From Candidatus Latescibacterota bacterium (GTDB taxonomy: Bacteria; Latescibacterota; UBA2968; UBA8231): a stretch of DNA of 64,000 bases. The first letter of the stretch is position 1. Each line of letters begins with the position of its first letter. This document shows positions 3,555 to 47,195 of this stretch, piece after piece. The DNA is taken from assembly GCA_965218365.1 (NCBI GenBank), contig OZ244619.1, positions 3,715,231 through 3,779,230 on the forward strand. The letters are read 5' to 3'. The translations under genes were made by a program, and so were the position numbers. Below the pieces are notes generated by a model, which saw nothing but the letters and a program-made list of their open reading frames with translations, did no database searches and had not been told where the DNA came from.

Positions 3555-3630
3555 ATCTTCATTGCTTTCCTTTGTCCCTAAGCCGGGGGCACGGACGTGT
3601 TAAATGAAGTTTGCCCAAAATGCTGGTAGT

Positions 3631-4380
3631 TCACGATGCCGCTTTGCGCGCAAGAGCAATCAGCCGCTTTGAGCTACGCCCATACGGACTGCCTTCCAAA
3701 TCCCCATATAGTTGCGTATTACTAAACCCAACTTGCAAGAGGCGATCCTTCAGTTCCTGGCCCGAGTACAGCGTGTGGTGAAACTTGAACGATTTTACCT
3801 GCTCATCCCGGATCAGGAGCCACTCGTTGCGAATCCTCGTCCAATCATCGAAGATCTCGCGACGTTGAACGAGCAATGTCCCGTCGGGACGCACCTCCGA
3901 GGAGGTCGCGGCGAATACTTTGGCCAACCACTCTTTACCTATTATATCCATTACGAGGGCTCCCCCAGGTTTGAGACTCTCGTAAATATTGCTGAGCACT
4001 AGCAGGTCCTCGTCCTTGTCATCGAAATAGCCGAAGGACGTAAACATGTTGAGCACCAAGTCGTACGAGGAGGGCCGCACAAAACGACGCATGTCTTCCT
4101 GCACAAACTCAACGTCTAATTTCCGCTCGTTTGCTCGCGTCCTAGCTTTTTGCAGTAGAAACGCTGTAGCATCAACGCCCGTTACGGAAAATCCTCGCTC
4201 GGCCAAGACCGTGGCATGTCGGCCGGGGCCGCAGCACAGGTCGAGGATATTTGTCCCGCTGAACTCCACCAGCGAAAGAATTTTGTCGACTTGATCTTCC
4301 GCAGATTCAAATCTCTCCTTTGGGAACATATAGGGATACATTTCCGTCCAGAAGTCTTCGTTTTCAAACCATTCGGACAT
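3631..4380 (-). CDS. Class I SAM-dependent methyltransferase
   Basis: 249 aa with motif I ILDLCCGPGRHATVLAERGFSVTGVD. Local GC is lower than the chromosomal background. Confidence 0.7.
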   Translation of the reverse strand: MSEWFENEDFWTEMYPYMFPKERFESAEDQVDKILSLVEFSGTNILDLCCGPGRHATVLAERGFSVTGVDATAFLLQKARTRANERKLDVEFVQEDMRRFVRPSSYDLVLNMFTSFGYFDDKDEDLLVLSNIYESLKPGGALVMDIIGKEWLAKVFAATSSEVRPDGTLLVQRREIFDDWTRIRNEWLLIRDEQVKSFKFHHTLYSGQELKDRLLQVGFSNTQLYGDLEGSPYGRSSKRLIALARKAAS

Positions 4381-4733
4381 AGAACCTCCAGCGTCATGTT
4401 TAGAGGAATGTCAGGACTCAATAGGTAAATTTCACTTAACGGCTTGTACCCGAATGGGTTCGGATAATCGCCCTTATTTGAAACTCATAGAAGGACAAAA
4501 ACTGGGCCAAATCAACCCATTTATTCCTCACCCTGCCAATAGTCGTCGATTCCGCCTTCTGACACGCGAGTCCACCTTGTAAGACCCTCTTTGTTTGCAT
4601 GGAAAGATGGGTGAACGAAAACCTTGTCGCTATCAGGATAGTAGCAGGTGTCAAAGTCAGGATGCTTCTTCGGCGAGTTGCCATTTCAGGGTACTGAGCC
4701 TACGAACATATTCGGAACTTAGTCTGAGGAAAT

Positions 4734-4975
4734 CCGCCTGACCTCCTCCGCGATGGGCACCGGTGAGCCCTACGGAGGAATGCGTCCTGAATGGTCTCAG
4801 CGAGGACCGGGTTTTGGACCCGATACGGGCTCACAGGCAACCCAACCCTACTGCGAGTCCTGTCAAACGACCTGCAAACGATCCTCAGCGAGCTTCCCCT
4901 GCCCCTTGCGTGGGTTCGGCGCCTTGACAAGAGGGCCGAAAAGGGGCCTCATTTTTCCTATACTTTGCCGCCGGG
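4734..4975 (+). mobile_element. IS91/ISCR-family element remnant, copy 2 (non-coding 3' end only)
   Basis: Shares ccgcctgacctcctccgcgatgggcaccggtgagccc...tcctatactt with the other copies. It carries one small internal indel (gggttttgg). Confidence 0.8.
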
Positions 4976-5386
4976 TTCCTGGGATCCTACGCGTTTCTGT
5001 CCCTCGGCATCGTTACCGCCGTGGAGGGCGCCAGGTACACGGCCGCGCGCCTGAGGGGTCTGGTGACGGCCGCTTCGTTTGTGTCGTGCGTGATCGTATA
5101 TCTGACGACGGCAGGATATTTCGTGTACGGCCTGCTGGGGAGTCTTCCAACCGGACCGGCATTGATGGCATACACGGTTCTTTCCGGCCTGGTCTTTCTG
5201 CTGATCGAACTTTTCCTGTTTGAAAAGTTCGTGGAAATTTGGCTGCTGTTCGCGGCGGACTTCGAAGATCCGGCGCGCCGGTCGATAGATAGTCAATACG
5301 AAAGGACGAACCCATGCCGGATACGAATGGGTCATCAGGGAAGTTACAACGGCCGAAGAGACGTTACCCGGACACGGTGCTGGTGA
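4976..5386 (+). pseudogene. Membrane-protein C-terminal fragment, N-terminally cut by element copy 2
   Basis: The hydrophobic open frame (..YLTTAGYFVYGLLGSL..LVFLLIELFLF..) starts immediately after the element end with no start codon or RBS. It overlaps the next gene by about 70 nt. Confidence 0.3.
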
Positions 5387-8300
5387 ACCGCGGCAAACCC
5401 GCGTCGGCCATCGTCTGCCCTGACGATGCGCCCTACCGGGAACTGGCTTCGGAATTGGGAGCAGCGATCCGTGACCTTACCGGCGCGGATGTCCCCCTGG
5501 TGTCGGACGCGGACGCGAAAACGCCGCCCGACCTGCATCTCATTCTGCTCGGGAACGTGAATTCGAACCGCGTCGTCTTCCGTCTCTACGGATACAATTA
5601 TAGCGCTGCGGACGACCTGTATCCGGGGCGCGGCGGGCATCTCGTTCAGACGATTCACGACCCATGGGGGAATGGAATGAACGCGGTGGGGCTGCTGGGA
5701 AGCGACCTGGAAGGCGTCCGCGCGGCGGTCGGCCTGTTCCTGGGGAAATTTGCGAAAGATGAGAAGCTTTCGACCGGTCCTCTCTTCGAGGTGCGGTTCG
5801 GGCCGGACGCGTTGAAGATTCCGAAGCTTGAACATGAGCCGGATGTGGATTTGGAGATGGAGGCCGCGGAGGAGGCGTTGCGCCATGGTGAACATACGGG
5901 CCTCTGGGGCAGGATCGGAGAACAGGGGCTGTTATACGGGCTCACGGGAAATGACGACTACGCCGAGCTATATAAGCGCCTCGTGTATCGGATGTACCGG
6001 CACGCGATGTCCGATCCGGACAACTACGGCGGCATCTGGGGATTCGACGCGGATTTCGCGCTGTACAAGGTGATGCCGGGGTGGGACCTCGTAGAGGAAA
6101 GCCCGGTGATCTCCGACGACGACCGGCTGCGGATTACACGGATCCTGTTCGAGTTCATCAGCGACTGCGTGTCACACGTGGGCAATATGAAGATTCCACA
6201 CGTGAGGCACAACCACACTACGTTTGCCGCATTGGGGCTGCACTATGCCGGCATATATTTCCGGAAGTATTACGGAATGCCGGAAGCGGACGCCTGGCTG
6301 GAGCTGTCCGACGCGTGTTTCCGGTTTCAGGCCAAGGCGTTCAAACCCCACGAAGATTGCAGCGGATACCAGTGGCTGACCCATTACCATCTGACCAGGT
6401 ATTCGCTCTCCAGCGGAGACATGACGTTCTTCGAGAACGGGTGCGCCCGGAAAGCGGCGGACTACGCCATCCTGACAACGGACAATCTGGGATATGCGCT
6501 TCCCTATGGAGACAATGCCTCGCCTTTCGGATGGTGGAGCGAACTGCCCTATCTGCGGGCCGCCGTTTTTGTGCTGCGGGACGGGCGATACCAGTGGATG
6601 CTCGACAGAAAGACGGCCGTCGAGCCGCAATTCGCGGCTTACGAATACCACAGGCGGGTAACCCCTGTCGAGCCGGCGAATCTGGACGGCACACAGGTGT
6701 TCCCGGTGGATCCGCTGTATTACGCGTCGAATCAGGGGAAAGACCATCTGCCATTGAAGAAAACCTTCGACAAGGTGGTGTTCCGGGACGGATACGACCC
6801 GATGTCGCAGTATCTGTTTCTGGACGGGCTCTCAAACGGAGGTCACAAACATTACGACGGGAATTCGATATCCCGCATTACGCAGCGGCGGCGGATCTGG
6901 CTGGCCGACTGCGACTACATCAAGTCGTTGCCCAAGTTTCACAACGGCGTGCTGATTTTCAGGAACGGACAGTCCGCCGAGATCCCGCCGTTCGTGGAGC
7001 TCGAGCGTGCCGCGAACTTCGACAGGTCGGGCTTTTCGGAGACCACGCTGCGCAACTACAGCGGGGTGGACTGGCACCGGAACATTCTCTGGAACCGGGG
7101 CCGTTACTTTCTGGTAATCGATGAGATGGAAGCCCTGTCGGACGACGATTTCGGTTTCAGAGCGATCTGGCAGACGCTGGGCAACGTGGCATTGCGCGGC
7201 GGCGGCCTGACGGTGGAGCAGGACGGCGAGCGGTTCTTTATCCAGGGGTTGAAGGGACCGTCGCTGAAGCTGGAGGACGACGAGGAAACCGGCAGGAACT
7301 GGACTGAATATCCGTACGCGGAACCGGTGGTACGGATCCTTCAGCAGATCGTAGACGTGCGTTTGAAGACTCGTGAGACCTATCGGTTCTTCAACCTTCT
7401 CTATTGTGGCGGTGAGCCAACCACACGGAGTTTGAAGTTGACCCGGCTGACAGATGGGGCTGTCCGGGTGGACGGCGGCGAGGAGGTCGTCTACGCCGGC
7501 GTGGGGGAACCGGATGTTCCGGTCGAGATTACCGGCGGTCCCGCCGTTGCCGCGGCGCAGTTTATGGTCTCTCCGTCCCGGATCGCGGTTGTGGATGGCA
7601 CGCGGGTTGCATGGGGCGGCGTGCGGTTGAGTTCGGAACAGTCGGTGTCTATAGAGTATGATCTGGTTCGGCGTGAGGGTCGGGCAACCGTCCGGCAGGG
7701 CACGAGGTTGTGCCTGTGGTCGGATGGTCGACCGGGCGTCACGGTCAACGGTAAGGCCGTGGATGTGTCCGTTTCTGACGACATGGTGTCTTTTGCATTG
7801 CCCATGGGCGACCATCGATTTCGCGTGGTGCCGGACGCCGTGATGTCTCTGCGCAGGGCCGCCACCGCTACCGTGCGCCCGGATGTGCCGCAACCCGCAT
7901 TGAACCGACCGGGCCGGGGCCGCGCGGGCCGGTTGAAGGCGCTGTGGACTTTTCGTGAGGAGGGTCCGTTTCTCTCGTTGCACGCGGCAGACCTGATGCG
8001 GGACGGATCGGATGTCCTCGTGGCGGCCGGCCGGGGCGCGTCGGTCTGTGCGCTGCGGGACGGTGCGGCGCTCTGGCGTTTCCGTACGGGAGGCGAGGTG
8101 AGATCCGTTTGGGCCGCGGATCTGGCGGGGGACGGCACGACACGGGTGATTGCGGGTTCCGCCGATACGAAGGTCTACGTGCTCAGCGCAAGGGGAAGGG
8201 TGAAGTGGGACTATGAAATCCCCCTGTACTACCGAAAGCCAATGCTGAAAACCGTATTTGCCGGCGATATCAACGGGGACGGCAAACTGGAGGTGATCGC

Positions 8301-9012
8301 GGGAGCCGAGTCCTGGCGCTACTATGCGTTCACCCACGACGGAAAGCTGCTGTGGTATCAGATGACCGTGCACTCATCCACCCACGGCTGCGCGGCGGAT
8401 ATCGATGGAGACGGCAGGGACGAGGTGATTGCCGGCACGGAATACCACCGCTGGCACTGTATTGACGGCAGCGGAGCGATCCGATGGTCCTACCATCCCA
8501 GGACCGGCCCGCGGACCAATGCCACCGCGGCGGGCGATCTGGATGGGGACGGCATGAAGGAAGTGGTCTTCGCGGGGGCGGATACACATATTCACACTCT
8601 TGGCGCAGACGGCAGGCTCCTCTGGCAGTTCAATACGGGGGACGAGGTGACGCAGGTCGTAACCACCGATATGGATGGCGACGGGCTGGATGAGGTGGTG
8701 GCGTCTTCGATGAGTTTCAACGTGTATGTGATAAAGGGCGACGGGCGGACCGTTGTATGGCGAGCGGACCTCGGGGAGGTTGTGCGGTGTATTTCGGTGG
8801 GTGATTTCGACGGCGACGGCAGGCCCGAGGTCGCCGCGGGGACCGAGGACGGCGTCGTGCATCTGCTTGCCAACGGTGATGGACGGACGCTGGCGCGTTT
8901 CAGGACCGGCGGCGCATTGTTGACAATGGCGGCGGCAGACGTGGACGGCGACCGTATTCCGGAGATTGCGGCGGCATCCGAAGACGGGGTTCTGTACGTG
9001 CTGAAGCGGTAG
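5314..9012 (+). CDS. Large (1232 aa) secreted-type protein: central polysaccharide-lyase/heparinase II/III-like region (tentative) plus C-terminal FG-GAP-repeat beta-propeller
   Basis: The C-terminal third carries at least 7 repeats of the xxDxDGDGxxExxxG type (AGDINGDGKLEVIAGAES, AADIDGDGRDEVIAGTEY, VGDFDGDGRPEVAAGTEDG ...), which matches FG-GAP. The middle region (NHTTFAALGLHYAGIYF...) only loosely resembles alginate lyase/heparinase. A good RBS (aaagga) precedes the ATG. Confidence 0.6.
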   Translation: MPDTNGSSGKLQRPKRRYPDTVLVNRGKPASAIVCPDDAPYRELASELGAAIRDLTGADVPLVSDADAKTPPDLHLILLGNVNSNRVVFRLYGYNYSAADDLYPGRGGHLVQTIHDPWGNGMNAVGLLGSDLEGVRAAVGLFLGKFAKDEKLSTGPLFEVRFGPDALKIPKLEHEPDVDLEMEAAEEALRHGEHTGLWGRIGEQGLLYGLTGNDDYAELYKRLVYRMYRHAMSDPDNYGGIWGFDADFALYKVMPGWDLVEESPVISDDDRLRITRILFEFISDCVSHVGNMKIPHVRHNHTTFAALGLHYAGIYFRKYYGMPEADAWLELSDACFRFQAKAFKPHEDCSGYQWLTHYHLTRYSLSSGDMTFFENGCARKAADYAILTTDNLGYALPYGDNASPFGWWSELPYLRAAVFVLRDGRYQWMLDRKTAVEPQFAAYEYHRRVTPVEPANLDGTQVFPVDPLYYASNQGKDHLPLKKTFDKVVFRDGYDPMSQYLFLDGLSNGGHKHYDGNSISRITQRRRIWLADCDYIKSLPKFHNGVLIFRNGQSAEIPPFVELERAANFDRSGFSETTLRNYSGVDWHRNILWNRGRYFLVIDEMEALSDDDFGFRAIWQTLGNVALRGGGLTVEQDGERFFIQGLKGPSLKLEDDEETGRNWTEYPYAEPVVRILQQIVDVRLKTRETYRFFNLLYCGGEPTTRSLKLTRLTDGAVRVDGGEEVVYAGVGEPDVPVEITGGPAVAAAQFMVSPSRIAVVDGTRVAWGGVRLSSEQSVSIEYDLVRREGRATVRQGTRLCLWSDGRPGVTVNGKAVDVSVSDDMVSFALPMGDHRFRVVPDAVMSLRRAATATVRPDVPQPALNRPGRGRAGRLKALWTFREEGPFLSLHAADLMRDGSDVLVAAGRGASVCALRDGAALWRFRTGGEVRSVWAADLAGDGTTRVIAGSADTKVYVLSARGRVKWDYEIPLYYRKPMLKTVFAGDINGDGKLEVIAGAESWRYYAFTHDGKLLWYQMTVHSSTHGCAADIDGDGRDEVIAGTEYHRWHCIDGSGAIRWSYHPRTGPRTNATAAGDLDGDGMKEVVFAGADTHIHTLGADGRLLWQFNTGDEVTQVVTTDMDGDGLDEVVASSMSFNVYVIKGDGRTVVWRADLGEVVRCISVGDFDGDGRPEVAAGTEDGVVHLLANGDGRTLARFRTGGALLTMAAADVDGDRIPEIAAASEDGVLYVLKR

Positions 9013-9079
9013 GCGGACGCCGCCGGTGTGGGTACCGGCGTGAACGGCGTCCTGCAGGATACGCGATATCGGAACCCGT

Positions 9080-9543
9080 CTAAAGATTCAGTTCGTGCGC
9101 GATGCCGGCCATTGCATCCCGCACGAATGCGATGTGTTCGTCCAGGTCCACTCCGAGTTCCGATGCCCCCGTGTGGATGTCGTCCCGGCTGGCGGCCTGC
9201 GCGAATCCTTTCTGTTTTATCTTCCTGCGCACGGACGAGGTCTTCAGGTCCGCCAGTTTCCTGGAAGGCTGCATCAGCGTAACGGCCACGATGAACCCGG
9301 TGAGTTCATCCACGGCGAACAGGGCTCTGTCCAGCAGGCTGTCCCTGGGCACGCCCAGGTAGGTGGCGTGAGATTTGATGGCGTGGACAATTTCCGCGGG
9401 ATATCCTTTTCCGTAAGGATGCGGACCCCGACCATCGGGTGCTCTTCGGGACTGGGGTGTTTTTCGTAATCGAAATCGTGCAGCAGCCCGGTGATGCCCC
9501 ACAGATCCTCGTCCTGCCCGAATTTGCGGGCGTAGGCCCGCAT
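9080..9543 (-). pseudogene. HD-domain phosphohydrolase; frameshifted and N-terminally truncated by element copy 3
   Basis: Two overlapping minus frames join as ..[44 protein letters not shown] / [18 protein letters not shown]..., which is an HD/HDIG signature. The frame change is near 9415. The expected N-terminus lies where the IS remnant at 9558 and beyond now sits. Confidence 0.5.
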
Positions 9544-9557
9544 CGCCGCTTCGACAG

Positions 9558-10109
9558 CGGCTCCATCTTCTGCGCTACCACGGGGTCTTGGCCCCTCGTG
9601 CCCGAGATCATCACCGCATCGTACCGGCGCAGCCGCTAGCCGAGTCGCCGGCGGCCAACCGCGCTTCGAGCGCTGGGCCCTGCGGCCATCGCCTGGGGTG
9701 GGCGGCCCTGCTCGCCCGCGTGTTTGCCACCGACCTCAGCGCCTGCCCGGCCGGTGGCGGTCGCCTGAGGATCATCGCTGCTCTGACCGATCCAGCCTCG
9801 ATCCGGACCAATCTGGAGGGCGTAGGGCTGCCGGCGGTGCCCCCGCCGAGGGTCCCGCCTCAACCCCAGTTCGAATTCGCCGCCTGACCTCCTCCGCGAT
9901 GGGCACCGGTGAGCCCTACGGAGGAATGCGTCCTGAATGGTCTCAGCGAGGACCGGGTTGGACCCGATACGGGCTCACAGGCAACCCAACCCTACTGCGA
10001 GCCCTGTCAAACGACCTGCAAACGATCCTCAGCGATCTTCCCCTGCCCCTTGCGTGTGTTCGGCGCCTTGACAAGAGGGCCGAAAAGGGGCCTCATTTTT
10101 CCTATACTT
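9558..10109 (+). mobile_element. IS91/ISCR-family element remnant, copy 3 (C-terminal ~100 codons of Y2 transposase plus 3' end)
   Basis: Encodes ..[92 protein letters not shown]. This is the Y2-transposase C-terminus with a Cys-x2-Gly-Gly zinc knuckle. The conserved 230-bp tail follows. Confidence 0.8.
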
Positions 10110-10412
10110 TAACTCAACCGCCCTCATTCTAACCAACGCTGATGTGGGTTTCACCTTGGCTTCGGTTTAGTATTACAACGACGGTTGGTGTGATAGGATG
10201 ACTGGGTAGTTGGGGAAGACTTGGGCAAGTGAGGCCGGGAAGTGGATGCGGGGGCTTTCGAGCACGGTGATAGATACTGGCTGCAGTATCAGCGCAAGCG
10301 TTTGTTCGCTCCGCTTGACCCGAAGGGGACTCCTGACTGGTCAGTCCCGATATGCTCCCCGCACTCAACTCCAGGGCCAGAAGTTACACACACCCTAATA
10401 TGGTAATATGAT

Positions 10413-11156
10413 ATGAACAAGGCCATTTGCTTCATTTTCGCGGCTATCGCTTTCCTCGCAACAGGGTGTGCAGCACCTATGACCAAGGTGGTGGCCACGC
10501 GCCAAAGTGGGACCATTGACCAAAATCTATTCAAAGAGGGCGATGAAGTTTGGGTTACCTATCAGGACAAACTAGATACCGTGACAATAAAGAAAGCTTT
10601 TGTCCTCGATACAGACGACGACTCGGTTAAGTTGGATGTAAGGAAGAAAGGGCATTTTGACATCGAATATCGACAGATACACACACTCAGTCGTCCAGTG
10701 AAGGATGTACGGTTTGTGAGTTTATCATCGGGCGCATTTACTACGGTACTTTTGGATCCTCCAATAGTCGGCGCGGGGCTTTCTTTAAGAAACGCGCCTT
10801 ATACAAACTACGGTATTGAGGCGAATCTCTCGCTAGGAGGAGGGAGAGATTCGAACGAGTTCTCGAAATGGCTAAGTGCGACTCTAAATTGGTACGGATA
10901 TACCTTCGTGCCCCGCACGTATATCTTCCTCGGATTTGGATATATATGGCCTAAGCCGACCGAAAGGTTTAGGGAAATTTATTATGATGATGGCGAGCGT
11001 GTCAGTACTGGCCTTATGCGTTTTGGATTTGGAGTGACGAATCCCATTTCAAAGCGGTTCAATATACGCGTAGAGGCTGAATTTAGTGTCCTAGTAGGAT
11101 TAAAGGTCTACCTTGAGCGTAGACTTCATACTGGATCCCAGAAAATTGGTGGATAG
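10413..11156 (+). CDS. Hypothetical lipoprotein (signal peptide plus lipobox LATGC), low-GC
   Basis: 247-aa ORF. Codon usage is atypical and GC about 45% against a background of about 65%. The Y/F/G-rich C-terminal half suggests a beta-rich outer-membrane-type fold. Confidence 0.45.
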   Translation: MNKAICFIFAAIAFLATGCAAPMTKVVATRQSGTIDQNLFKEGDEVWVTYQDKLDTVTIKKAFVLDTDDDSVKLDVRKKGHFDIEYRQIHTLSRPVKDVRFVSLSSGAFTTVLLDPPIVGAGLSLRNAPYTNYGIEANLSLGGGRDSNEFSKWLSATLNWYGYTFVPRTYIFLGFGYIWPKPTERFREIYYDDGERVSTGLMRFGFGVTNPISKRFNIRVEAEFSVLVGLKVYLERRLHTGSQKIGG

Positions 11157-11161
11157 ATAAT

Positions 11162-11824
11162 ATGGATGTCGGAATCAACAAAAATCACCACATCAGCCCT
11201 ACTAATGCAGGGTTGGTTTTGCTCGTATTCTCTCTTCTCTCATTTGTCGATCATGTCCATGCGGATGGGACACGCGACAAACTACTCGCCAAGAAGTTTG
11301 CTCCCATACTGGTACTGACGGAGCATCCAACAATATCCGGCCGTATAGTGCTTAATCCTGAACCGGTTGAAATCATGGGCGCTGACTCCCTGTCCAATGT
11401 CAGGGTGGTCTCCGCGAATCTATTGGGAGGTTACTTCCTGGAAGCGTCCTATTTAGCCGACTGGAACCCACCTTTGAATTTTCCCGGGGTCGATGCTTCG
11501 CGAAATCAATTTGCATTTCTTACTACTCAACGAAGGTTCTATGACGGTATACGGCCAGGAGAAAATTCTGAGTCGGTTAACATGGTGGTGAAGCCACTAT
11601 TTTTTGACTACCCTGGAGACGATAGGGCATCTTGGAACCCTGCGTATCTTGGGACTGGTGGGGATGATGCTCATGCGGGATGGCGGTTCAGGAACACTGT
11701 GTACGCCCGCGTGTTTGAACGTCCCGATTCCTCGGACGGTAAAGGTTCCGTTTTTATCACCTATTTTTCTTTCTATCCTTTTAACGATTCCTCAGCGCCT
11801 GCCCGGCCTGTGGCGGTCGCCTGA
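11162..11824 (+). CDS. Hypothetical secreted protein, 3' end replaced by element copy 4
   Basis: Signal-peptide-like N-terminus. The last 11 codons (SAPARPVAVA) are read from inside the IS remnant, so the native C-terminus is lost. Confidence 0.4.
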   Translation: MDVGINKNHHISPTNAGLVLLVFSLLSFVDHVHADGTRDKLLAKKFAPILVLTEHPTISGRIVLNPEPVEIMGADSLSNVRVVSANLLGGYFLEASYLADWNPPLNFPGVDASRNQFAFLTTQRRFYDGIRPGENSESVNMVVKPLFFDYPGDDRASWNPAYLGTGGDDAHAGWRFRNTVYARVFERPDSSDGKGSVFITYFSFYPFNDSSAPARPVAVA

Positions 11825-12165: not shown

Positions 12166-12366
12166 TGCAGTTCATTGATGATACGGAGAGCATGATAGCC
12201 GGATTCGAGAATGTGGATGCCATGGACAGACGGGCGTTTGCGGTTTTTGTTTTACTGAGGAATAGACGATAGTGGTGGATTTCAGATTATCAGGTCAGAG
12301 AGATGGTTAGTCGAAGAGGCTGGACACGTCAACAATCGCTGCGGATTAGGGCGAAGGAGAGATTGA

Positions 12367-33198: not shown

Positions 33199-33202
33199 CT
33201 TC

Positions 33203-38821: not shown

Positions 38822-40146
38822 TGCAACACTTGGACGATGCCTACCGACAGGCAGAAAAAATTCTAGCGGGATTTCTAGAAGACAAGTCAGTAAACTGGCG
38901 CATCCTTTTGATTAAAGATGTCTTTGCCAAGCTACGTATCGTCCTTTGGTGTCCCAAAAAAAGTAGGGAATCCGGCCGCGAAGAAATCAATCAAAGCCTT
39001 CGTCAGGTCTCATCGCCCTACTGGTCAGAAAACGTGTTGTTCGGGCAGAAAAAGGATGAACCGCCCAATGGCCCTTGGCAAGATGCTGCTTGGCGTAAAG
39101 CACAAGATGTCGAGGGAGTGAATGGTCTTCGGGTCTTGGAGCGACACCGAGCCAAGACGGGTTGGTTTGAATCCCCCGACGAGCCGCCATGGACCCTCAA
39201 AAAAAACACTGGAGTTCCTATTTGCCTCTTCTATTCGTTTAAAGGGGGCGTAGGTCGGTCGATGGCCCTCGCGGCGACTGCGTTGCATCTGGCTACTGCC
39301 GGTGATCGAGTTGTCGTGCTAGATGCGGATCTTGATGCACCCGGAGTAGGTTCCTTACTCGCGGGATACGACAGCGCGACTGCCCCGTGGGGCATTGTGG
39401 ACTATCTACTCGAGTACCCCATCTTGGCCGAAAATGGAGGACTGGATATCGGAGATTACTATCACCTCTGTCCGTCCGAACTCGTGCCTGGGCAAGGAGA
39501 AATTCTCGTATTTCCGGTGGGGGTTTTCGATGATCGGTATCTTAACAAGCTCGCACGGCTCGACTACGGAGTTCCACCGGATCATCCAGAACATCCCTTC
39601 GTTTCACTTCTGAAACAGATTGGCCGAGACCTCGCACCAGATTGGATTCTGGTTGATGCCCGTGCTGGACTGGGCGATGTGTCGGGGTTCTTAACTGGAG
39701 GTTTGTGTCACCTTCATGTGTTGTTCGGCACACTGGCAGACGCGAGTTGGCAGGGTATGAAGCAGATCGTAGATCGGCTCGGGGGCACTCGGGTACGGGA
39801 AGGCAAGCCCCAAGCTGAGTGCCTAGTAGCAGCGGCGATGATACCGCGATCTCAAGAGGCCCAGTATCAAGAATCCGTGGAATGGTTCACGGATCAAGCA
39901 CGCGATGTGTTCTCCAATTACTATTACGCAGAAGCAGGACACCAAGACAAATTTTGGACGATGGACGACATGGAGAACACCGATGCCCCGCATGTCCCTA
40001 TCGTACTGCCCTACGACGAACGCCTTGCTCTTTTCCGAAATCTGAGCGAAGTCAATTCCATCCTGCTTACTCCGAACGGGCCTTATGGAGAGCTTGCTGA
40101 GCATCTGAAAGCTGGCTCCCGTCGATTGAAGGAGACAACTAAATGA
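38821..40146 (+). CDS. ParA/MinD-like deviant-Walker-A ATPase with unique ~170-aa N-terminal domain (Walker A KGGVGRS, with Arg in place of the P-loop Lys)
   Basis: ICLFYSFKGGVGRSMALAATALHLATAGDRVVVLDADLDAPG is the KGGxG[KR]S P-loop plus DxD. The Walker B candidate is WILVDARAGLGD. The TGATG overlap with the HEPN gene and the ATGA overlap with the next gene indicate translational coupling. Confidence 0.5.
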   Translation: MQHLDDAYRQAEKILAGFLEDKSVNWRILLIKDVFAKLRIVLWCPKKSRESGREEINQSLRQVSSPYWSENVLFGQKKDEPPNGPWQDAAWRKAQDVEGVNGLRVLERHRAKTGWFESPDEPPWTLKKNTGVPICLFYSFKGGVGRSMALAATALHLATAGDRVVVLDADLDAPGVGSLLAGYDSATAPWGIVDYLLEYPILAENGGLDIGDYYHLCPSELVPGQGEILVFPVGVFDDRYLNKLARLDYGVPPDHPEHPFVSLLKQIGRDLAPDWILVDARAGLGDVSGFLTGGLCHLHVLFGTLADASWQGMKQIVDRLGGTRVREGKPQAECLVAAAMIPRSQEAQYQESVEWFTDQARDVFSNYYYAEAGHQDKFWTMDDMENTDAPHVPIVLPYDERLALFRNLSEVNSILLTPNGPYGELAEHLKAGSRRLKETTK

Positions 40147-41651
40147 ACAACACATCGAGACTCACTAAAGAGCGGTGTACTGACCTGCGTGGTCAGCTCA
40201 GCGATCTTGGCTATGGGCAGGCTGAATCGGAAACGTCGGAACTCTTCTCACACAGACTTTATCTCGTCCCGGAACATCTACGAGCACTTGATCCGCGTGT
40301 CGTACTGGTCGTCGGTCCCCGCGGTGCAGGGAAGAGCGCGTTATTCAGAGCCATCTTCTTAGGGATGGATCTCGGCGATGCGATCATTCGTCGCGTACCA
40401 CAAATCGCAAGCACCGCTATGCAGTTTGACTCTACGACTTGGAAGGCCGCCTTTCCTGAAGGCACTAGTTTTCCCGACACTCAAGCCCTTGAGCGACACA
40501 TCAATTCGGACGAGCAGGCGAAGCGCATTTGGTATCTGATGCTCGTCCGGTGTCTGACGTGCGAGTTCGACGACGCCCAAAAAGCAAGCTTGCGGCCCCT
40601 GACCGAGCCAAGAGCTGCAGAAATCGACAAAATACTCGCTGCTGCTAACTCACTGGAAGCCAATCCTACAGCGGTTCTGGACGCACTGGAAGAGCGACTC
40701 GAACGCGAAGGACGCTGGGTTTTTGTCGGCTACGATGAGCTTGATACGTTAGGAGGTTTCAATTGGACATTGATGGCACGAATGGTGCGCGGGCTTGTCG
40801 CTTTCTGGTCTGACTACAGTAGACGTTGGCGACGGATTCGGGCAAAGATATTCCTCCGCTCCGATCTTTTTCGCCGACACGCAGGCATGGGTACCGCAGA
40901 CTTTGCAAAGCTTGCTGCCAATCGCGCCATACTTGGCTGGTCTGACGCAGCAATACTCGGAATGCTGGTGAAGCGCATCGCCAACACATCTGACGAATTA
41001 GAGTCCTACTGTCAAGGGGCAAGGGTTACGTTTGAAAAGGATGATACGCTCGGGTTGGTTCCCAATATACAAGCGCCTGATGTTGCCCACCCATTGCTGG
41101 AGCGGATGGTAGGCGAGTACATGGGCTCCGACAAGAAGAAGGGGTTTGTCCGCAATTGGATACTTGCCCATCTACGAGATGGAAACGGCGATCTCTGCCC
41201 GCGTACGCTCGTGCGACTGGTAGAGATCGCCGCCGCGAATAACTCGGCGAACCGAACTCTGCGCCCGCCGCGGCTGATCCATCCCACAGCACTACGCCAA
41301 GCCCTCAATGACGTGTCAAGCGACCATGTAACCCAAGGAATTAGCAGCGAATGGCCATGGTTGGAGGGGGTTAAAAGGCGACTGAAACAACAGCAGCTTG
41401 TGCCGTGGCAGAGTAGTGAGATTGTGAATCTGCTCAACTCGGACTGGGATGAAACTTGGGGACTACCAAGTAGCACTCCCGTGCGACCGCCCGAGGAAAG
41501 GCCGGCGGATCTCGTTAATTATCTCGTCGAGCTTGGTATTTTCCGGAGACGCTCCGATGGGCGGGTTGATGTGCCTGACCTGTATCTGTTTGGCCTAGAA
41601 CTCCGTCGCAAAGGCGGCGTTAAGGTAGGTGCTCGTCGCCAAAGAAGCTGA
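40143..41651 (+). CDS. AAA+/STAND-like P-loop NTPase (502 aa)
   Basis: ..HRLYLVPEHLRALDPRVVLVVGPRGAGKSALF (Walker A GPRGAGKS) and RWVFVGYDELDTL (Walker B hhhhDE). The sensor-2-like segment is PRTLVRLVEIAAANN. The C-terminus is unrecognised. Confidence 0.45.
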   Translation: MNNTSRLTKERCTDLRGQLSDLGYGQAESETSELFSHRLYLVPEHLRALDPRVVLVVGPRGAGKSALFRAIFLGMDLGDAIIRRVPQIASTAMQFDSTTWKAAFPEGTSFPDTQALERHINSDEQAKRIWYLMLVRCLTCEFDDAQKASLRPLTEPRAAEIDKILAAANSLEANPTAVLDALEERLEREGRWVFVGYDELDTLGGFNWTLMARMVRGLVAFWSDYSRRWRRIRAKIFLRSDLFRRHAGMGTADFAKLAANRAILGWSDAAILGMLVKRIANTSDELESYCQGARVTFEKDDTLGLVPNIQAPDVAHPLLERMVGEYMGSDKKKGFVRNWILAHLRDGNGDLCPRTLVRLVEIAAANNSANRTLRPPRLIHPTALRQALNDVSSDHVTQGISSEWPWLEGVKRRLKQQQLVPWQSSEIVNLLNSDWDETWGLPSSTPVRPPEERPADLVNYLVELGIFRRRSDGRVDVPDLYLFGLELRRKGGVKVGARRQRS

Positions 41652-41822
41652 GGATTGGCCTGCTTTTCATTTGAGAGTAAGATGATCGAATACTAAAGGT
41701 CTGATTCGGCAGCTTCATCGGTGCTTTGCTGCGCTACTTAGTCGCAATACAGATCCAGAGTCGACGAGTGGAACAACCTCGTCGGTGTCGCCGAACACGC
41801 CGCAACTGAAACGCGCCTGCCC

Positions 41823-42057
41823 TCTCCGTCTGACCTCCTCCGCGATGGGCGCCGGTGAGCCCTTACGGAGAAATGCGTCCTGAATGGTCTCAGCGAGGAC
41901 CGGGTTGGACCCGGTACGGGCCCACAGGCCACCCAACCCTACTGCGAGCCCTGTCAAACGACCTGCAAACGATCCTCAGCGAGCTTGCCCTGCCCCTTGT
42001 GTGTGTTCGGCGCCTTGACAAGAGGGCCGAAAAGGTGCCTCATTTTTCCTATACTTT
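41823..42057 (+). mobile_element. IS91/ISCR-family element remnant, copy 12 (tail only); right bracket of the HEPN cassette
   Basis: tctccgtctgacctcctccgcgatgggcgccggtgagccc...tcctatactt. Confidence 0.8.
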
Positions 42058-42058
42058 C

Positions 42059-42606
42059 CCGATTTCAAGCTGATCCCCGCCGCGGTGGAACCGGAGCAAC
42101 CGGACGACCGTGGCCGCGGGCTCACCCATGCCCACGGGCCGGCGATGATCAACCGCGGCGACCGGACCCTGATGTGGTACGGGATGTTCTTCGGCAGCGA
42201 CGTGCGCTGCGCCAGCTGGCACCGGGACCGGCTTGGGTGTTTCGAGACCTTCGACGAGATGATCTTCGGCGAGGGGGAGTTCTTTCCGATCACGCGGCCG
42301 CGGCCGCACTTTATCAGCTGCCCTATGTGCGCTGGGGACGGTCCGCTGAAACTGTTCGCCAACGCCGATCTGAACGAGCACTGTCCGCTGACGGTGGAGG
42401 TGCTGGATGAGGGGTTCCATCCGCTGCCGGGGTATTCCGGGGATGCCTATGTGCCGCTGGCGGAGGATGGCTTCCGGTTGCCGGTGCGCTGGAAGGAAAG
42501 GGATGAGCTGCCGGCGGGGGAGACGTTGCGCCTGCAGGTGAACTACGGCGATGGGCTGCGGCCGGAGGATGCCAAGGTGTACGCGCTCTACGTGGCGAAG
42601 GAGTAG
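42059..42606 (+). pseudogene. C-terminal ~170-aa fragment of a beta-propeller GH-like paralog, N-terminally cut by element copy 12
   Basis: ..HFISCPMCAGDGPLKLFANADLNEHCPLTVEVLDEGFHPLPGYSGD...LRPEDAKVYALYV aligns with the C-terminus of the 16880..18394 protein ([13 protein letters not shown]...[13 protein letters not shown]). Confidence 0.5.
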
Positions 42607-42660
42607 GTCGATCCGACGAAAATCATGGATCCAATTAACCGAGAGCGAGGAGATTGAGAC

Positions 42661-44292
42661 GTGAATGCAGACCATATGAAGGCGCGCTGGCGGCAACGCC
42701 GGATCATTTACAACAACGACGGCGACGATGTAATCGAAGCACGCTCCGGAGTGGAACATGAGTATGACGTCTCCGCAGCCACGACGGTACGCGCCACCGG
42801 AGATCTGGTACAAGATTTTCTCGATGCCCGCAGCACGCCTCTGATCGGCACCCAGGTGGACAGCAACTGGTTCGCCAGCTGCATGGCGGGCCTCACCTTT
42901 TCACACCATACGAAGTTGGGCGGATTCTACGGCAAGGGGATCCCGCTGGAGCTGGTGGAGAAATACGGGCGCGACAGTTTGCAGGTACAGCTGGATTTCA
43001 GCCACGAGCACGGCATGGAAGCAGCTTGGTGCCTGCGCATGAACGATGTCCACGACGCGTTCCCCATGGGTTCGCGTCCATGGACCTACGGTCTGGCCAA
43101 GTTCAAGCGAGACCATCCGCAATGCTTGATGGGCAAGGAGGGCGATTGGGAGAAATACGGCCAGCACGACCCGCGGTCTGGATGGACGCGATTGGATTTC
43201 GCTGTTCCAGAGGCGCGCGAGCACATCTTCGGCATCATTCAGGAGGTGGCGCAGAACTACGACGTGGACTGTATCGGCATGGAGTTCTTCAAGTACTGGC
43301 CCTTCTTCCGTGAGTCGCTGGAGGGCAATCCCGTCGAACCGGAGCATCTGGAGTTGATGAACGATTTTTTGCGGCGCATCCGGCACATGGCGGACGAGCA
43401 GGCCAACCGCCGCGGCCGCCCACTGCTGCTGGCGGCGCATACCCCGTTCAGCCTCGCCGATTCGATCCACGTGGGGGGCGACCTGGAAACGTGGCTGAAG
43501 GAAGGATTGATCGATCAGCTCATGCCCGGCGGCAACTACGAATCGGTTTTCTGCAGTTCCTACAGCGACATCATCGCACTGGGACACAAGTACGAGGTTC
43601 CGGTCTATCCCTGCGTGTCCTGGGGCTTCTGGGATCGCTGGGCCTTTCTCGGACTTACCGATGGCAAATACAGACAGTTCGGGTCGTGGTTAGAGACCCT
43701 CTACGGAGCTCAGCCCGAGCGCGTCGGCAGACCGTCGTTTATTCTGGTGTTCAACAGCTGGGAGGGCACAATGGCCGCGTGGCGGGGAGCCGCCTCGAAT
43801 CTGTTCAATTCCGGCGCCGATGGGCTCTACCTCTTCAATCCCCAGTTCGGGGAGCCGCAATGGTGGCGCGAGATCGGCGAACCGGCAACCATGGCCGGCA
43901 AAGACAAGCTCTACGGCATCGAGCGTTTTACAGGCCCCGACAGCTTTACCGAAACTCCGGAGGTTACCCTCCCCGTGTCCGCGGGTTTTCAGGTGGGCGA
44001 GGAGGTCGGATCCGCCGGTGCGCGCAGCATCGATTTCAGCCTGCATCTGTGGGATTGGGCTCCCGGCGACGACCTCTCGGTGAAACTCAACGGCGCGGCG
44101 GTCGAGGGGCTAAATCCGGTCGATCCGGACCGCAACCCCAAGGAAGGTCAGTGGCTGCGGGGCACGCTCGATGCCAGACAGATCCGTCGCGGTGAGAATC
44201 AGCTGGACGTGGCGGTTAAGAACCGCGGCGAGTCCGCTTCGTCTGCGGTCGTGCTTGACGCAGCGCAGCTGCGGGTTCGTGCGAAGGAGTAG
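42661..44292 (+). CDS. Conserved hypothetical protein, paralog of 19662..21290
   Basis: See 19662..21290. Full length and intact. Confidence 0.45.
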   Translation: MNADHMKARWRQRRIIYNNDGDDVIEARSGVEHEYDVSAATTVRATGDLVQDFLDARSTPLIGTQVDSNWFASCMAGLTFSHHTKLGGFYGKGIPLELVEKYGRDSLQVQLDFSHEHGMEAAWCLRMNDVHDAFPMGSRPWTYGLAKFKRDHPQCLMGKEGDWEKYGQHDPRSGWTRLDFAVPEAREHIFGIIQEVAQNYDVDCIGMEFFKYWPFFRESLEGNPVEPEHLELMNDFLRRIRHMADEQANRRGRPLLLAAHTPFSLADSIHVGGDLETWLKEGLIDQLMPGGNYESVFCSSYSDIIALGHKYEVPVYPCVSWGFWDRWAFLGLTDGKYRQFGSWLETLYGAQPERVGRPSFILVFNSWEGTMAAWRGAASNLFNSGADGLYLFNPQFGEPQWWREIGEPATMAGKDKLYGIERFTGPDSFTETPEVTLPVSAGFQVGEEVGSAGARSIDFSLHLWDWAPGDDLSVKLNGAAVEGLNPVDPDRNPKEGQWLRGTLDARQIRRGENQLDVAVKNRGESASSAVVLDAAQLRVRAKE

Positions 44293-44293
44293 C

Positions 44294-44440
44294 CAACAAT
44301 GGCCGAACCCACAGTACCCCGCCTGCCGGTAGTCCTGGACATTGGCAACGAACGCCAGCTGTTCGTCGACGACTATTTGATCGACGGACTGGAGAATATC
44401 TCGCGCTTCGTCCACCAGCCGGTGTCGCGCGCAAGATGGT
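44294..44440 (+). pseudogene. N-terminal fragment of a beta-propeller GH-like paralog (internally deleted)
   Basis: MAEPTVPRLPVVLDIGNERQLFVDDYLIDGLENISRFVHQPVSRAR, followed directly by ..KMVTFASYDFETWTQAS.. (compare ..[21 protein letters not shown] in paralog 1). A premature stop follows. Confidence 0.4.
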
Positions 44441-44452
44441 GACCTTCGCCTC

Positions 44453-44646
44453 CTACGATTTCGAGACCTGGACCCAGGCCTCCTGTCTCAGTTTCCGCTG
44501 CGATGAGGTGTCGCCACGGCGCATGCAGCTCTGCGGGGTGCCCGACTTGCCGTCGCGGCTGTGCCCCAACTGAGCCAGCTCACAGTGGCTGCCCTCGAAG
44601 TAGGTCGAGGTCAGGTCGTAGAGCACCAGCGTGTGCTCGCTGAGGT
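44453..44646 (-). pseudogene. IS4-superfamily (IS1634-like) transposase N-terminal fragment
   Basis: ..HTLVLYDLTSTYFEGSHCELAQLGHSRDGKSGTPQ.. corresponds to the conserved YDxTSxYFEG...G[HY]S[KR]D.RPD.[KP]Q N-terminal motif of IS1634/IS4-type DDE transposases. It abuts the 5' end of element copy 13. Confidence 0.4.
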
Positions 44647-44873
44647 GCTCCTCCGCGATGGGCGCCGGTGAGCCCTTACGGAGAAATGCGTCCTGAATGG
44701 TCTCAGCGAGGACCGGGTTGGACCCGATACGGGCCCACAGGCCACCAAACCTTACTGCGAGCCCTGTCAAACGACCTGCAAACGATCCTCAGCGAGCTTG
44801 CCCTGCCCCTTGTGTGTGTTCGGCGCCTTGACAAGAGGGCCGAAAAGGGGCCTCATTTTTCCTATACTTTGAC
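44647..44873 (+). mobile_element. IS91/ISCR-family element remnant, copy 13 (tail only)
   Basis: ctcctccgcgatgggcgccggtgagccc...tcctatactt. Confidence 0.8.
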
Positions 44874-45215
44874 GAATGAGCTGACCACGCTGCCGGCAAG
44901 CAGCCTTGTGTCGCTGATGTGCCTCCGTTGCTACCAGGATGCTCTCACAACGGGCAAACATGGCATATCCGACCTTGTCGATGAGCTCCTCATCGCGAAT
45001 ACCCAATTCTTCTGTTGCGTAGAGACCCCTTATCCAATTCGGAGATACCCGCCCTGCCCACTGTGGAATTTCATTTCTCATGCCATGCCAATTTCAGGTA
45101 ACGTTATGCCGGTTGCCGAACCTGCGAAGTGGATTGCCGAAGGCCAAGGCGCGAACAGCGCCGAAGCGCAAACCGTGCTGTTACCCGATGTGTCAAACCA
45201 CCCGACGCGCCGGCG

Positions 45216-45596
45216 CTACTTCACTCGCTCTCGAGGAACGACACGAATTGCATCATCTAGCTGGCGCGACAATGGCGAAAATTCGGCACCAGACTTCGGA
45301 TCAATCACTGCAATCGTGTAGTCAACTGTGGTATCAGCGTAAACCTGAACAACCTTGTAGTCGATGGACGGGTTCGGCTCCACAACGCGGATTGAATACT
45401 TAGCGCCCAACTCAGGAACATCCACGTGGCGCATTTGTTTCAAAGCGTGCTCGACCCTTCGAACCAAAGACGAGTCATCTTGAACGACCAGCGATAATGG
45501 CTCTTCTGCGGGCTCGTCGCAGCTAGTCGCCAGGAGTGCCCCTACTGCTGAACAGATAATCCAGAGTCGTCGTCGCATCATGTTCTGATCTCGCAT
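45216..45596 (-). CDS. Hypothetical lipoprotein (signal peptide plus lipobox LATSC)
   Basis: 126 aa with RBS gaggaaa. A 14-bp perfect inverted repeat sits immediately upstream. Confidence 0.4.
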   Translation of the reverse strand: MRDQNMMRRRLWIICSAVGALLATSCDEPAEEPLSLVVQDDSSLVRRVEHALKQMRHVDVPELGAKYSIRVVEPNPSIDYKVVQVYADTTVDYTIAVIDPKSGAEFSPLSRQLDDAIRVVPRERVK

Positions 45597-45807
45597 TTCC
45601 TCTAACTGCCAGTATGCGAACCATTGGTTCGCATACTGGCCGCCAAGTGCTACATATCTGAAACGAAGGTTTCTATTATTGTGAACAGTGGCAACCAGTA
45701 TCCTCGAGGCCGAATATTCTCATAACTCTTTGCTATTGTTTGAGATAGATCGATTCTTCTGAGGTCTGTCGCATCTCGCATGCATTTCCCTGGCAAAGGT
45801 TTGGAGA

Positions 45808-46000
45808 ATGCACGCAATGCGGAAATATCGCGGACACCCGGGCCTGACCGATGAAGAGATAGCTGTCCTCGGCCGGGTCGAGTTGGAGCTGAAGCTGAGG
45901 GGATACGCCAGGAAGACGCGGAAGTCGTACAAGGGCTACTGCCGGCGACTCCTTCAATGGAAACGGGGCTACCGCGGCAAAGGGCAGTCGGCGTTATTGT
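45808..46000 (+). pseudogene. Tyrosine recombinase (phage-integrase family) N-terminal SAM-like domain fragment
   Basis: ..LTDEEIAVLGRVELELKLRGYARKTRKSYKGYCRRLLQW resembles the core-binding N-domain (L.LRGYS..T...Y......F..W). Recognisable integrase sequence ends after about 60 aa. Confidence 0.3.
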
Positions 46001-46117
46001 CAACAAGCAACCTCAATCAATCAGACTTTATCCCAATAGCTGCAGCACAAGATACACGGTTGTTTGATTACTTTCTCCCCACTTCTGGCGCGCCGCTCGA
46101 CTAGCCCCTGTCACCCA

Positions 46118-46741
46118 TCATATTCTCTTCCCAATAGACATGAAATGGTGAGGATAGACGTAGGGATCGTAGGGTTTCCTGCTCGTTGTTTCGGGACGTT
46201 CCTTGAAGTGCTGCCTGATTATAAAGTTTATCTGGATGAACCATGATTCGTTCCAGGCATAGCCGAGTCCTGCCAATACATTCCATCCCATTCCTCCAAA
46301 TCCATCCCCGGTGAAAGTCCACCCACCTCCAGAACGCCTGTGTTTCTTCGCAGTTACGTGAGATACCCCTAAATCGAGCCGGTAGAACCATCCCTGGGCC
46401 TTTTCCTGGGAATCGAACTGTATGGCGCTGATGTTCAGATTCAGGGGAATGGCCCAGGTCCAGGAGTCTCTATACTTCCTGCTTCCGAATGAATCTACTA
46501 TGGCGGTAAACGATATTCCTGCAAACAGGAATTCATTTCCAATCGGATGATTTAGAGCTATCTGAGATCCCAGGGCACCATCCGTAAAAGGGAAGGGAAC
46601 TAGCGTAGAAGGAAATATGTAGTGCCGACCATAGCCCAGACTCCACCAGCTTTTCCATCCCTTTTCTTTGGTTGGCTCGAGCTCGAGAGTGGAACTTCCG
46701 GCTGGAAGGATCAACAGGATGATCAGAAGGATCGGTTTCAT
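46118..46741 (-). CDS. Hypothetical secreted protein, low-GC
   Basis: 207 aa. Signal peptide MKPILLIILLILPAGSS. Rich in aromatic residues and Gly. Confidence 0.35.
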   Translation of the reverse strand: MKPILLIILLILPAGSSTLELEPTKEKGWKSWWSLGYGRHYIFPSTLVPFPFTDGALGSQIALNHPIGNEFLFAGISFTAIVDSFGSRKYRDSWTWAIPLNLNISAIQFDSQEKAQGWFYRLDLGVSHVTAKKHRRSGGGWTFTGDGFGGMGWNVLAGLGYAWNESWFIQINFIIRQHFKERPETTSRKPYDPYVYPHHFMSIGKRI

Positions 46742-46759
46742 TTTACCTGTCTGATATCC

Positions 46760-47040
46760 TGAATCCTATCTTGGGATTGGGAGGTCCGTCGGTTGGCGAT
46801 TGCTTTGACAATGCCCTGTGCGAAAGTTTCTTTGCTACTTTGGAATGCGAACTCATAGATCGCCATACCTTTCGCTCTCAAACCCAGGCTCGCATCGCCC
46901 TTTTCCGTTTTATCGAGGGTTGGTACAACCCCCATCGCAGCCACTCGGCCATAGACTATATGTCGCCCATCAGCTATGAAAAGAGATGGAAGGAACGTCC
47001 GCAAATCTCAAGTCCAAAACTGTCCACCAAACCGGGGTAA
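46760..47040 (+). pseudogene. IS3-family transposase (OrfB/rve integrase core) C-terminal fragment
   Basis: ..GDCFDNALCESFFATLECELIDRHTFRSQTQARIALFRFIEGWYNPHRSHSAIDYMSPISYE is the canonical IS3-family OrfB C-terminus (G.C.DNA..ESFF..LK.E......T...A......YIE.WYN..R.HS.L.Y.SP..YE). Confidence 0.65.
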
Positions 47041-47195
47041 CTCCACCTCTGCTATTGGGGGCTTTCGAGGTATTCATTTCGAACTCGTTTCTATACAGGG
47101 AAGTGTAAGCCCGATAGTCCATCCGTCTGGCAAAATATACCATACATCCTACACACCTCGGACTTTCGAAAATATCTCGGTTTTTCAACGGACTG

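Follow-up and report, generated by a model that had tools for sequence, protein, structure and literature searches.

Rolling-circle capture together with homologous recombination is the accepted explanation for the gene contexts of ISCR1 (complex class 1 integrons) and ISCR2, and also for the ISCR2-tet(X) structures. To our knowledge, ISCRs are usually described without a recognizable terIS, the terminating end of the related element IS91. Here we analyze a stretch of 64,000 nucleotides (nt) of the chromosome of a Candidatus Latescibacterota bacterium (contig OZ244619.1; the whole stretch is called the window), which contains 13 partial copies of an element that we assign to the IS91 family. 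In IS91 itself, transposition starts at oriIS, the right end downstream of tnpA, of which the last 82 bp suffice, and is terminated at terIS, the left end, where failure in 1 to 10% of events moves adjacent DNA by one-ended transposition (PMC13181058). Known read-through thus takes place on the 5' side of the gene, opposite to the side proposed in an initial annotation of the window. We propose, with a probability of about 0.6, that the region is a hotspot of oriIS-like 3' ends of an ISCR-like element, in which the unit is a segment of DNA plus the partial copy on its right.

A search with TCCTATACTT (at most one mismatch) gave 13 matches in the window against 0.97 expected, all on the plus strand and between 3.5 and 44.9 kb. 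Alignment of the copies, which occupy 3.3 to 47.2 kb together with the DNA between them, reveals a sharp common 3' end that reads (T)CCTATACTT and 5' starts that differ. We call the last base of the common end R, number the copies c1 to c13 and the DNA between them S1 to S13, and refer to the outer flanks as S0 and S14. Copies are 167 to 1071 nt long, none of the 13 is intact, and three sequence subfamilies track position (c1 to c4, c5 and c6, and c7 to c13). Two relatives were central to the comparisons: L019, a 5.73-Mb genome (ERZ25067264 ctg836683) that is 99.5 to 99.8% identical to the window over 36.9 to 58.3 kb, and L021, a 246-kb contig (ERZ25068628 contig_3) about 98% identical to the window. 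The copies are as follows.

c1, 3292-3553, plus strand: 262 nt, 5'-truncated 3' end of the IS91-family element, subfamily A
c2, 4733-4965, plus strand: 233 nt; 5' break adjoins the truncated GrpB fragment at the right end of S1
c3, 9558-10109, plus strand: 552 nt; its 5' break cuts an HD-domain gene at the right end of S2
c4, 11790-12165, plus strand: 376 nt; junction of R with S4 kept in L021
c5, 13797-14557, plus strand: subfamily B; internal deletion, true left boundary of the element retained; within an indel (13570-15063) relative to L021
c6, 16538-16737, plus strand: 200 nt, subfamily B; within an indel (16500-16838) relative to L021, with an 11-nt direct repeat on either side
c7, 22554-22942, plus strand: 389 nt
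c8, 26135-27205, plus strand: 1071 nt, longest in the window; transposase part in frame with a Metallophos fragment (open reading frame [ORF] 25336-26982)
c9, 28491-29314, plus strand: 824 nt
c10, 33032-33198, plus strand: 167 nt; its 5' break and that of the additional 168-nt copy of L019 are no more than 1 nt apart, with differing upstream DNA
c11, 37364-38198, plus strand: 835 nt; merged with c12 into one hybrid copy in L019
c12, 41823-42056, plus strand: 234 nt; where the copy ends and S12 begins, a gene of the 553-aa family is cut
c13, 44648-44869, plus strand: 222 nt; in L019 an extra unit (956-nt cargo plus 168-nt copy) follows its 3' end directly

Each copy comprises the 3' part of an IS91-family transposase gene and a noncoding tail of about 220 nt from the stop codon to R. 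In the window copies, the Pfam profile Y2_Tnp (PF04986) is matched only C-terminally (positions 79 to 179 of 183), consistent with truncation. A near-full-length, frameshifted copy in a related genome (L001) matches both PF14319 Zn_Tnp_IS91 (9e-18) and PF04986 Y2_Tnp (1.5e-20). Judging by these domains, the repeat is an IS91-family element, as the initial annotation had also recognized. No intact transposase gene lies within the window. A 476-amino-acid (aa) protein with Zn_Tnp_IS91 and Y2_Tnp (P0215) is encoded on a 5,907,301-bp contig; window proteins match this contig at 100%, and we therefore take it for the source genome. A protein encoded in a close relative (P0216, L026 6001-7431) is likewise 476 aa long and carries both transposase domains. 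The L026 translation contains an H-V-H motif ("NPHVHVLMLDG"); RY..RP and RYHG stretches, candidates for the paired catalytic tyrosines, are also present. Among IS91-family transposases on clinical plasmids, the best listed (15 of at least 5000 matching records, all below 60%) share 39 to 41% aa identity over about 90% of the length. The one plasmid match whose context was examined adjoins sul2, a linkage that is the usual context of ISCR2.

The two ends of the element behave differently. The same terminal stretch of about 26 nt, nearly invariant, is present in 32 of 32 copies (13 in the window and 19 at other loci; five genomes), and the loss at the 5' side is variable. The last 20 nt of the element occur in the genomes of three GTDB species only, all Candidatus Latescibacterota, and nearly every copy there is 5'-truncated with the same 3' end, down to a shortest copy of 56 nt. 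Since the 3' end is always kept and the 5' end lost, an origin at the 3' end fits better than a terminator that is bypassed, with the direction of replication that this would imply. The left boundary (GCGTACCGCCGCC...) is unrelated to the right end (...TCCTATACTT), making these two different ends. Similarity among the aligned copies c5, L001, and L010 has the same starting point, a little inside the 5' end of tnpA, so that the element has a defined left boundary; the match between L026 and CBDCXV01, a further Latescibacterota genome, begins near the corresponding point by BLAST coordinates.

The element resembles the ISCRs in its two transposase domains (plasmid matches at the identity given above), in having, as suggested here by sequence comparison, a functional origin-type end 3' of the gene, and in the occurrence of truncated and full copies in direct orientation around unrelated cargo. 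Unlike the ISCRs, which are hosted by proteobacterial plasmids, it sits in a Latescibacterota chromosome, with 13 copies in one array and none of them intact. Its cargo consists of methyltransferases, lipoproteins, attC-type cassettes, PDC-M28 candidate defense genes, and ordinary chromosomal DNA, with no antibiotic resistance, and four copies share a defined left boundary. With IS91, IS801, and IS1294 it shares distinct ori and ter ends with ori downstream of tnpA and, on comparative evidence, sufficient in cis, as well as a constant ori end, a variable other end, and no target duplication (at the L019 insertion described next). Most products here differ from those of IS91, IS801, and IS1294 in being shorter than the element, through 5' truncations inside tnpA, rather than longer.

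Comparison with L019 shows that whole units are gained and lost between close strains. In place of c11-S11-c12, L019 carries a single hybrid copy whose sequence follows c11 as far as 140 nt from R and c12 from 73 nt onward, placing the crossover 73 to 140 nt from R. The presence or absence of S11 therefore arose by recombination within tails. A second difference is of another kind: L019 has an extra 956-nt low-GC segment followed by a 168-nt copy. The pair directly abuts R of c13 on one side and the first base of S13 on the other, and nothing is duplicated. The position of a G/T variant, 22 nt from R at this insertion, is the wrong one for a crossover and favors an exact-end event over recombination in this case. 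The copies themselves diverge far more than their surroundings: c11 (37364-38198) differs from its L019 counterpart (reverse complement, 421-1255) at 16 of 835 positions versus 0 of 420 and 3 of 2591 in the flanks, and copies thus exchange sequence by gene conversion much faster than the flanks mutate. The proposal of the initial annotation that this is a cargo-holding array is well supported, as exchangeable, partly foreign segments differ between near-identical strains.

At the corresponding chromosomal position, L021 carries an array whose contents differ (ADH, BNR, two Fic genes, and a WD40 gene), and the junction between R of c4 and S4 is common to L021 and the window. The MR_MLE gene, the 451-aa gene, a 504-aa homologue of the 553-aa gene, the GHL10-like gene, and the BNR gene are contiguous in L021 at 98% identity, interrupted only by the c5 and c6 indels. 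Because of this contiguity, we regard S4 to S6 as native synteny and the c5 and c6 regions as indels. Another contig, L020, is collinear with the window and yielded no further difference.

The relation of cargo to its two bordering copies can be seen in a cassette shared by two different Latescibacterota species (CBDCXV01 7690-12934 and OZ242214 4216-9265; 97.6 to 99.7% identical). The match spans the cargo and the identical 5' break of the right-hand copy. The left-hand copies are only 90% identical, and the junction between R and cargo is shifted by 246 nt: OZ242214 extends further and holds an intact 342-aa gene, which R cuts near codon 14 in CBDCXV01. Because the cargo through the right 5' junction is about 99% identical, as opposed to 90% for the left copies, and the left junction differs, the cargo appears to be linked to the right-hand copy, with the left end as the variable one.

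The segments between the copies, with their G+C content (GC) where it stands out, are as follows.

S1, 3554-4732: GC 0.50; S-adenosylmethionine methyltransferase and a GrpB 3' fragment; both ends cut relative to tail-free L022 to L024
S2, 4966-9557: normal GC; FG-GAP protein; displaced fragment by the comparison below
S3, 10110-11789: GC 0.48; lipoprotein (lipobox LATGC) and a second protein
S4-S5-S6, 12166-22553: MR_MLE, 451-aa methyltransferase-domain protein, 553-aa protein, GHL10-like, BNR; native synteny
S7, 22943-26134: composite; 22943-25335 at GC 0.56 (HD/dGTPase-like gene and 179-aa gene), 25336-26134 at GC 0.74 (Metallophos fragment)
S9, 29315-33031: GC 0.51; methyltransferase, split GNAT gene, SPFH protein; attC-like site 29378-29456 (minus strand)
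S10, 33199-37363: normal GC; first gene cut at its 5' side at R of c10
S11, 38199-41822: GC 0.54; PADLOC PDC-M28B and PDC-M28C candidate defense genes; absent from L019
S12, 42057-44647: normal GC; C-terminal 186 aa of a 553-aa-family gene, then a GHL10-like paralogue of the S6 gene
S13, 44870-47190: GC 0.51; small minus-strand genes; attC-like site 45094-45191 (minus strand); palindrome 45608-45640

The initial annotation had placed low-GC stretches immediately behind c1, c3, c5, c7, c9, c11, and c13. This is borne out for c1, c3, c9, c11, and c13, each of which is followed, from the base next to R onward, by a clear low-GC block. Each of the five (S1, S3, S9, S11, and S13) is below every same-size window of the flanking chromosome, which has a mean GC of 0.64. 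The cases of c5 (523 nt at 0.558, borderline) and c7 (258 nt at 0.50, with 22943-25335 at 0.56) are weak. S1, S3, S9, and S11 run precisely up to the 5' break of the copy that follows (c2, c4, c10, and c12), and S13 has a copy on its left side only. Averaged over all 13 copies, GC is 0.566 in the 300 nt past R versus 0.572 in the 300 nt ahead of the 5' breaks, and for the 19 copies at other loci the means are 0.562 after R versus 0.592 before the 5' break (Wilcoxon p = 0.37). Because the means are nearly equal and four of the five blocks lie equally upstream of c2, c4, c10, and c12, there is no side specificity of GC around the copies, and the claim that low-GC DNA lies specifically 3' of them does not hold. 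The low-GC segments thus find partial confirmation: they are real and bracketed by copies on both sides, and appear to move with the right copy, not the left.

Displacement extends beyond the low-GC DNA. L025, a 5.75-Mb genome about 88% identical to the window, contains S2 in a tail-free chromosomal context; homology runs from 3 nt after R of c2 to the 5' break of c3, cutting a 217-aa gene and the HD gene. Being found tail-free in L025 and having genes cut at both ends, S2 is displaced cargo of normal GC. For S10, the first gene aligns with a 501-aa paralogue from L026 starting at base 33198. S2, S10, and S12 are all displaced fragments with cut genes at one or both ends. The initial annotation had also taken the DNA upstream of the copies for native genes cut by insertion, which agrees with the synteny of S4 to S6 and not with the displaced S2, S10, and S12 or with the gene fused to c8. 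In that ORF (25336-26982), an N-terminal Metallophos fragment is fused in frame to the C-terminal Y2_Tnp section; the GC of the fragment, 0.74, is far above the flank mean and near that of the element's transposase gene (about 0.68 to 0.72). The 548-aa fusion ORF is also called in L020.

Some of the contents recur within the window or in other genomes. The GHL10-like paralogues (19605-21290 and 42661-44292) are 61% identical at the aa level, and an unannotated family of about 550 aa recurs (16880-18541 versus 33224-34636, 35485-37296, and 42055-42597, in S6, S10, and S12). Homologues of the S3 proteins (39 to 49% aa identity) are found in genome CBDCXV01 in a low-GC segment between two tails, the same architecture. 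The candidate defense genes of S11 (38695-40146 and 40143-41651) match PDC-M28B (4e-56) and PDC-M28C (8e-68) in PADLOC. The GNAT acetyltransferase gene in S9 is split into two ORFs (30338-30736 and 30743-31195, minus strand) that cover consecutive parts of one Pfam profile and is probably a pseudogene.

We propose that each copy is a beheaded element that may retain only the end needed in cis, the oriIS-like 3' end, and that these origin-end stubs serve as joints between exchangeable segments. Units could be gained or lost by two routes. In the first, a unit would be added or lost precisely at the terminal base of a tail already in place, possibly when a transposase supplied in trans, for which an intact-length gene elsewhere in the genome could provide, nicks the origin of that tail and inserts the unit there as a circle. 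In the second, homologous recombination between tails would add or remove units. A transposase would thus make R junctions in addition to those made by recombination. Capture from arbitrary DNA would leave genes cut at segment ends, as they are here. The odd/even alternation is strict, with five of five clear low-GC segments behind odd-numbered copies (chance 0.016, post hoc). Extrapolating from the two strain differences of L019, solo tails in older normal-GC array DNA may each have gained one low-GC unit on their 3' side, bringing its own short tail.

Several observations weigh against this proposal. The c5 and c6 indels relative to L021 contain unique DNA on both sides of the copy (220 and 506 nt; 38 and 101 nt) and do not fit a simple unit of segment plus right copy; the 506 nt after c5 and the short c6 flanks had no match among the sequences compared. 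An 11-nt direct repeat (16489-16499 and 16839-16849) flanks the 339-nt c6 block absent from L021, and L021 may have lost the block by deletion between these short repeats, in which case nothing would have been inserted in the window. The linkage of cargo to the right copy comes from one shared cassette and one strain-specific insertion, and the right copies of CBDCXV01 and OZ242214 are only 94% identical beyond the first 314 nt. Copy parts near R are homogenized within genomes, so copy phylogeny is unusable for ordering events. For the S11 difference, homologous recombination is a sufficient explanation, and it could account for much of the array as well; no transposition intermediate or activity is visible from sequence. 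Further, unlike in IS91, IS801, and IS1294, the tetranucleotide CTTG/GTTC outside the ori end is not seen: the element ends in CTT plus a variable base, and the four bases after R vary between copies. If the true end were ...CCTATA, the retained CTTN would be a relaxed tetranucleotide.

The rival account that survives best does without a transposase today. Here the tails are dead relics that act as portable homology, and looped-out circles re-integrate into any tail. The S11 crossover sits within tails, copies are mosaic and homogenized within genomes, the window is without an intact transposase gene, and most copies are truncated across five genomes, all of which speak for this account. It struggles with the extra unit of L019, which is joined exactly at R with a variant on the wrong side that leaves less than 22 nt of homology. 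The first capture beside a tail, with genes cut arbitrarily and exactly at R, would also need a nonhomologous step, and intact-length transposase genes are present in both strains. We consider recombination as the sole process unlikely.

The read-through proposed in the initial annotation corresponds to Helitron-like 3' transduction, in which copying starts at the 5' end and overruns the tcctatactt end, so that a low-GC block belongs to the copy on its left. The five low-GC blocks that directly follow a 3' end are in keeping with this, as are S13 with a copy only on its left, the 506 nt on the 3' side of c5 within the indel relative to L021, and short CTT-like matches in donor-like sequence just left of two junctions of R with cargo. 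The origin of IS91, however, is the end downstream of tnpA, with read-through at the opposite end (PMC13181058), and the 5' parts required as a start are gone at differing positions in almost every copy, with the 3' end always retained. In the shared cassette, the junction of R with cargo is variable and the left copy is not co-inherited (90% versus about 99%). GC shows no side bias. For S1, relatives also show what the initial annotation had itself named as refuting its model, the low-GC segment without an adjacent tail: L022 to L024 contain S1 at 91.7% identity in an attC-bearing array, where many small genes follow each other on one strand and the surrounding 10 kb are free of tails. We therefore judge it very unlikely that cargo reached a fixed 3' side through read-through. 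Most improbable is the insertion of 13 pre-truncated copies, independently and oriented by target preference, into an existing island with unrelated low-GC DNA, which would suit the tail-free attC-type arrays that S1, S9, and S13 carry or derive from and the interruption of native synteny by c5 and c6, but not the GC changes that coincide, in four cases, with copy ends to either side, the flanks of a copy that never rejoin into one gene (the N-terminal part of the gene cut by c12 is not upstream of c11 or c12), or strain differences that consist of whole units of segment and copy.

Removing a single copy restored no intact gene in the window, and no shared motif was found at the 5' breaks or in the DNA left of them in the copy alignment and junctions.

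Some of the low-GC cargo resembles integron-type cassettes. The L019 version of S13 contains 2.46 kb of extra cassettes with small genes, including Metallophos, NUDIX, acetyltransferase, and ABM genes. It also has intergenic sites of about 100 nt with TAAC...GTTA ends and internal palindromes that resemble attC. A profile built from four of these L019 sites, whose structure was judged by eye only, matches the window at 45094-45191 (minus strand) in S13 (4e-24) and at 29378-29456 (minus strand) in S9 (8e-15), and also finds intergenic sites in L022 and L023 (7e-16 and 3e-06). The sites of this one sequence family, which include those in L019 (13488-15505) and L022 (286-378 and 8209-8296) and a weak one in the window (30349-30386, minus strand), follow small genes. 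The array part of L022 and L023 has a GC of about 0.52, and their right-hand end about 0.62. A strict R''/R' attC pattern scan returned nothing, an inverted-repeat scan gave one clear palindrome only, and the roughly 40 window ORFs scanned, part of the total, included no integrase-type domain. Taken together, S1, S9, and S13 at the least resemble parts of an integron-type cassette pool of this lineage, comparable to a CALIN (cluster of attC sites lacking an integrase). An ORF at 47196-48194 had been considered as an integron integrase; this was rejected, as the ORF encodes a class I aldolase.

The array as a whole shares with integron arrays and CALINs its one-directional exchangeable units at a fixed chromosomal site, varying between close strains, and the attC-like sites of one family in S9, S13, and the source context of S1. 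It differs in that its unit borders are IS91-type tails of 167 to 1071 nt and not attC, in that its units are arbitrary fragments with cut genes and not precise one-gene cassettes, and in the lack of an integrase among the ORFs scanned. One may tentatively see in the tails a rolling-circle counterpart of the integron, with a Y2 HUH transposase, encoded elsewhere in the genome, that would recognize resident origin ends as favored landing sites and insert circular units of segment and origin fragment directly behind their final base, although we find this doubtful. If true, such a system would build and reshuffle a one-directional array at a fixed site, sampling defense genes, integron cassettes, and ordinary chromosome.

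The IS91/ISCR family is already known; the present case is an unusually long, stub-only array in an uncultured phylum. It would extend ISCR-type gene capture, studied almost only on proteobacterial resistance plasmids, to the chromosome of such a phylum, and may show the state that such a system reaches after prolonged use, in which an array of origin-end stubs provides the joints. Comparing the strains yields datable single events, one recombination and one exact-end insertion, that could serve to measure the turnover of defense and cassette genes in natural populations. The array also calls for caution in identifying foreign DNA by GC, as segments of normal GC are displaced too and low-GC DNA, at least in S1, S9, and S13, looks like the lineage's own cassette pool.

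Simple scans of the tail end found no sigma-70 promoter and no intrinsic terminator. An outward promoter in the tail, considered as a candidate, is unsupported, the first downstream gene being on the plus strand in only 8 of 13 cases. When the tail consensus was folded, the covariation term was weak (-0.12) and only 4 of 39 pairs had changes in both partners, and we do not claim a structured RNA; an Rfam gathering scan of the window returned no family. A metagenome scan with the terminal 20-mer produced six chance matches in unrelated low-GC contigs from which the element is absent. Exact-protein look-ups gave no match for the window DeoC, two small window ORFs, P0001, or P0215, and a contig with a DeoC homologue at 80% (L027) is not syntenic.

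Additional observations come from the related loci. L026, at the 5.56-Mb position of the 5.73-Mb relative, holds a second, smaller array with same-strand tails at 2200-2471, 6030-7658, and 11455-11749, one of which is an intact-length element. Upstream of the near-full-length copy in L001 (2236-4022, plus strand) lie a 271-aa and a 324-aa gene that by eye resemble an AbiEi/AbiEii-type toxin-antitoxin pair. Finally, one tail in OZ242214 is split by an 854-bp sequence (L010+L007, 9265-10118) that recurs at 88% identity in OZ252098 (L004, reverse complement, 6893-7746) and is probably a small mobile element of another kind.

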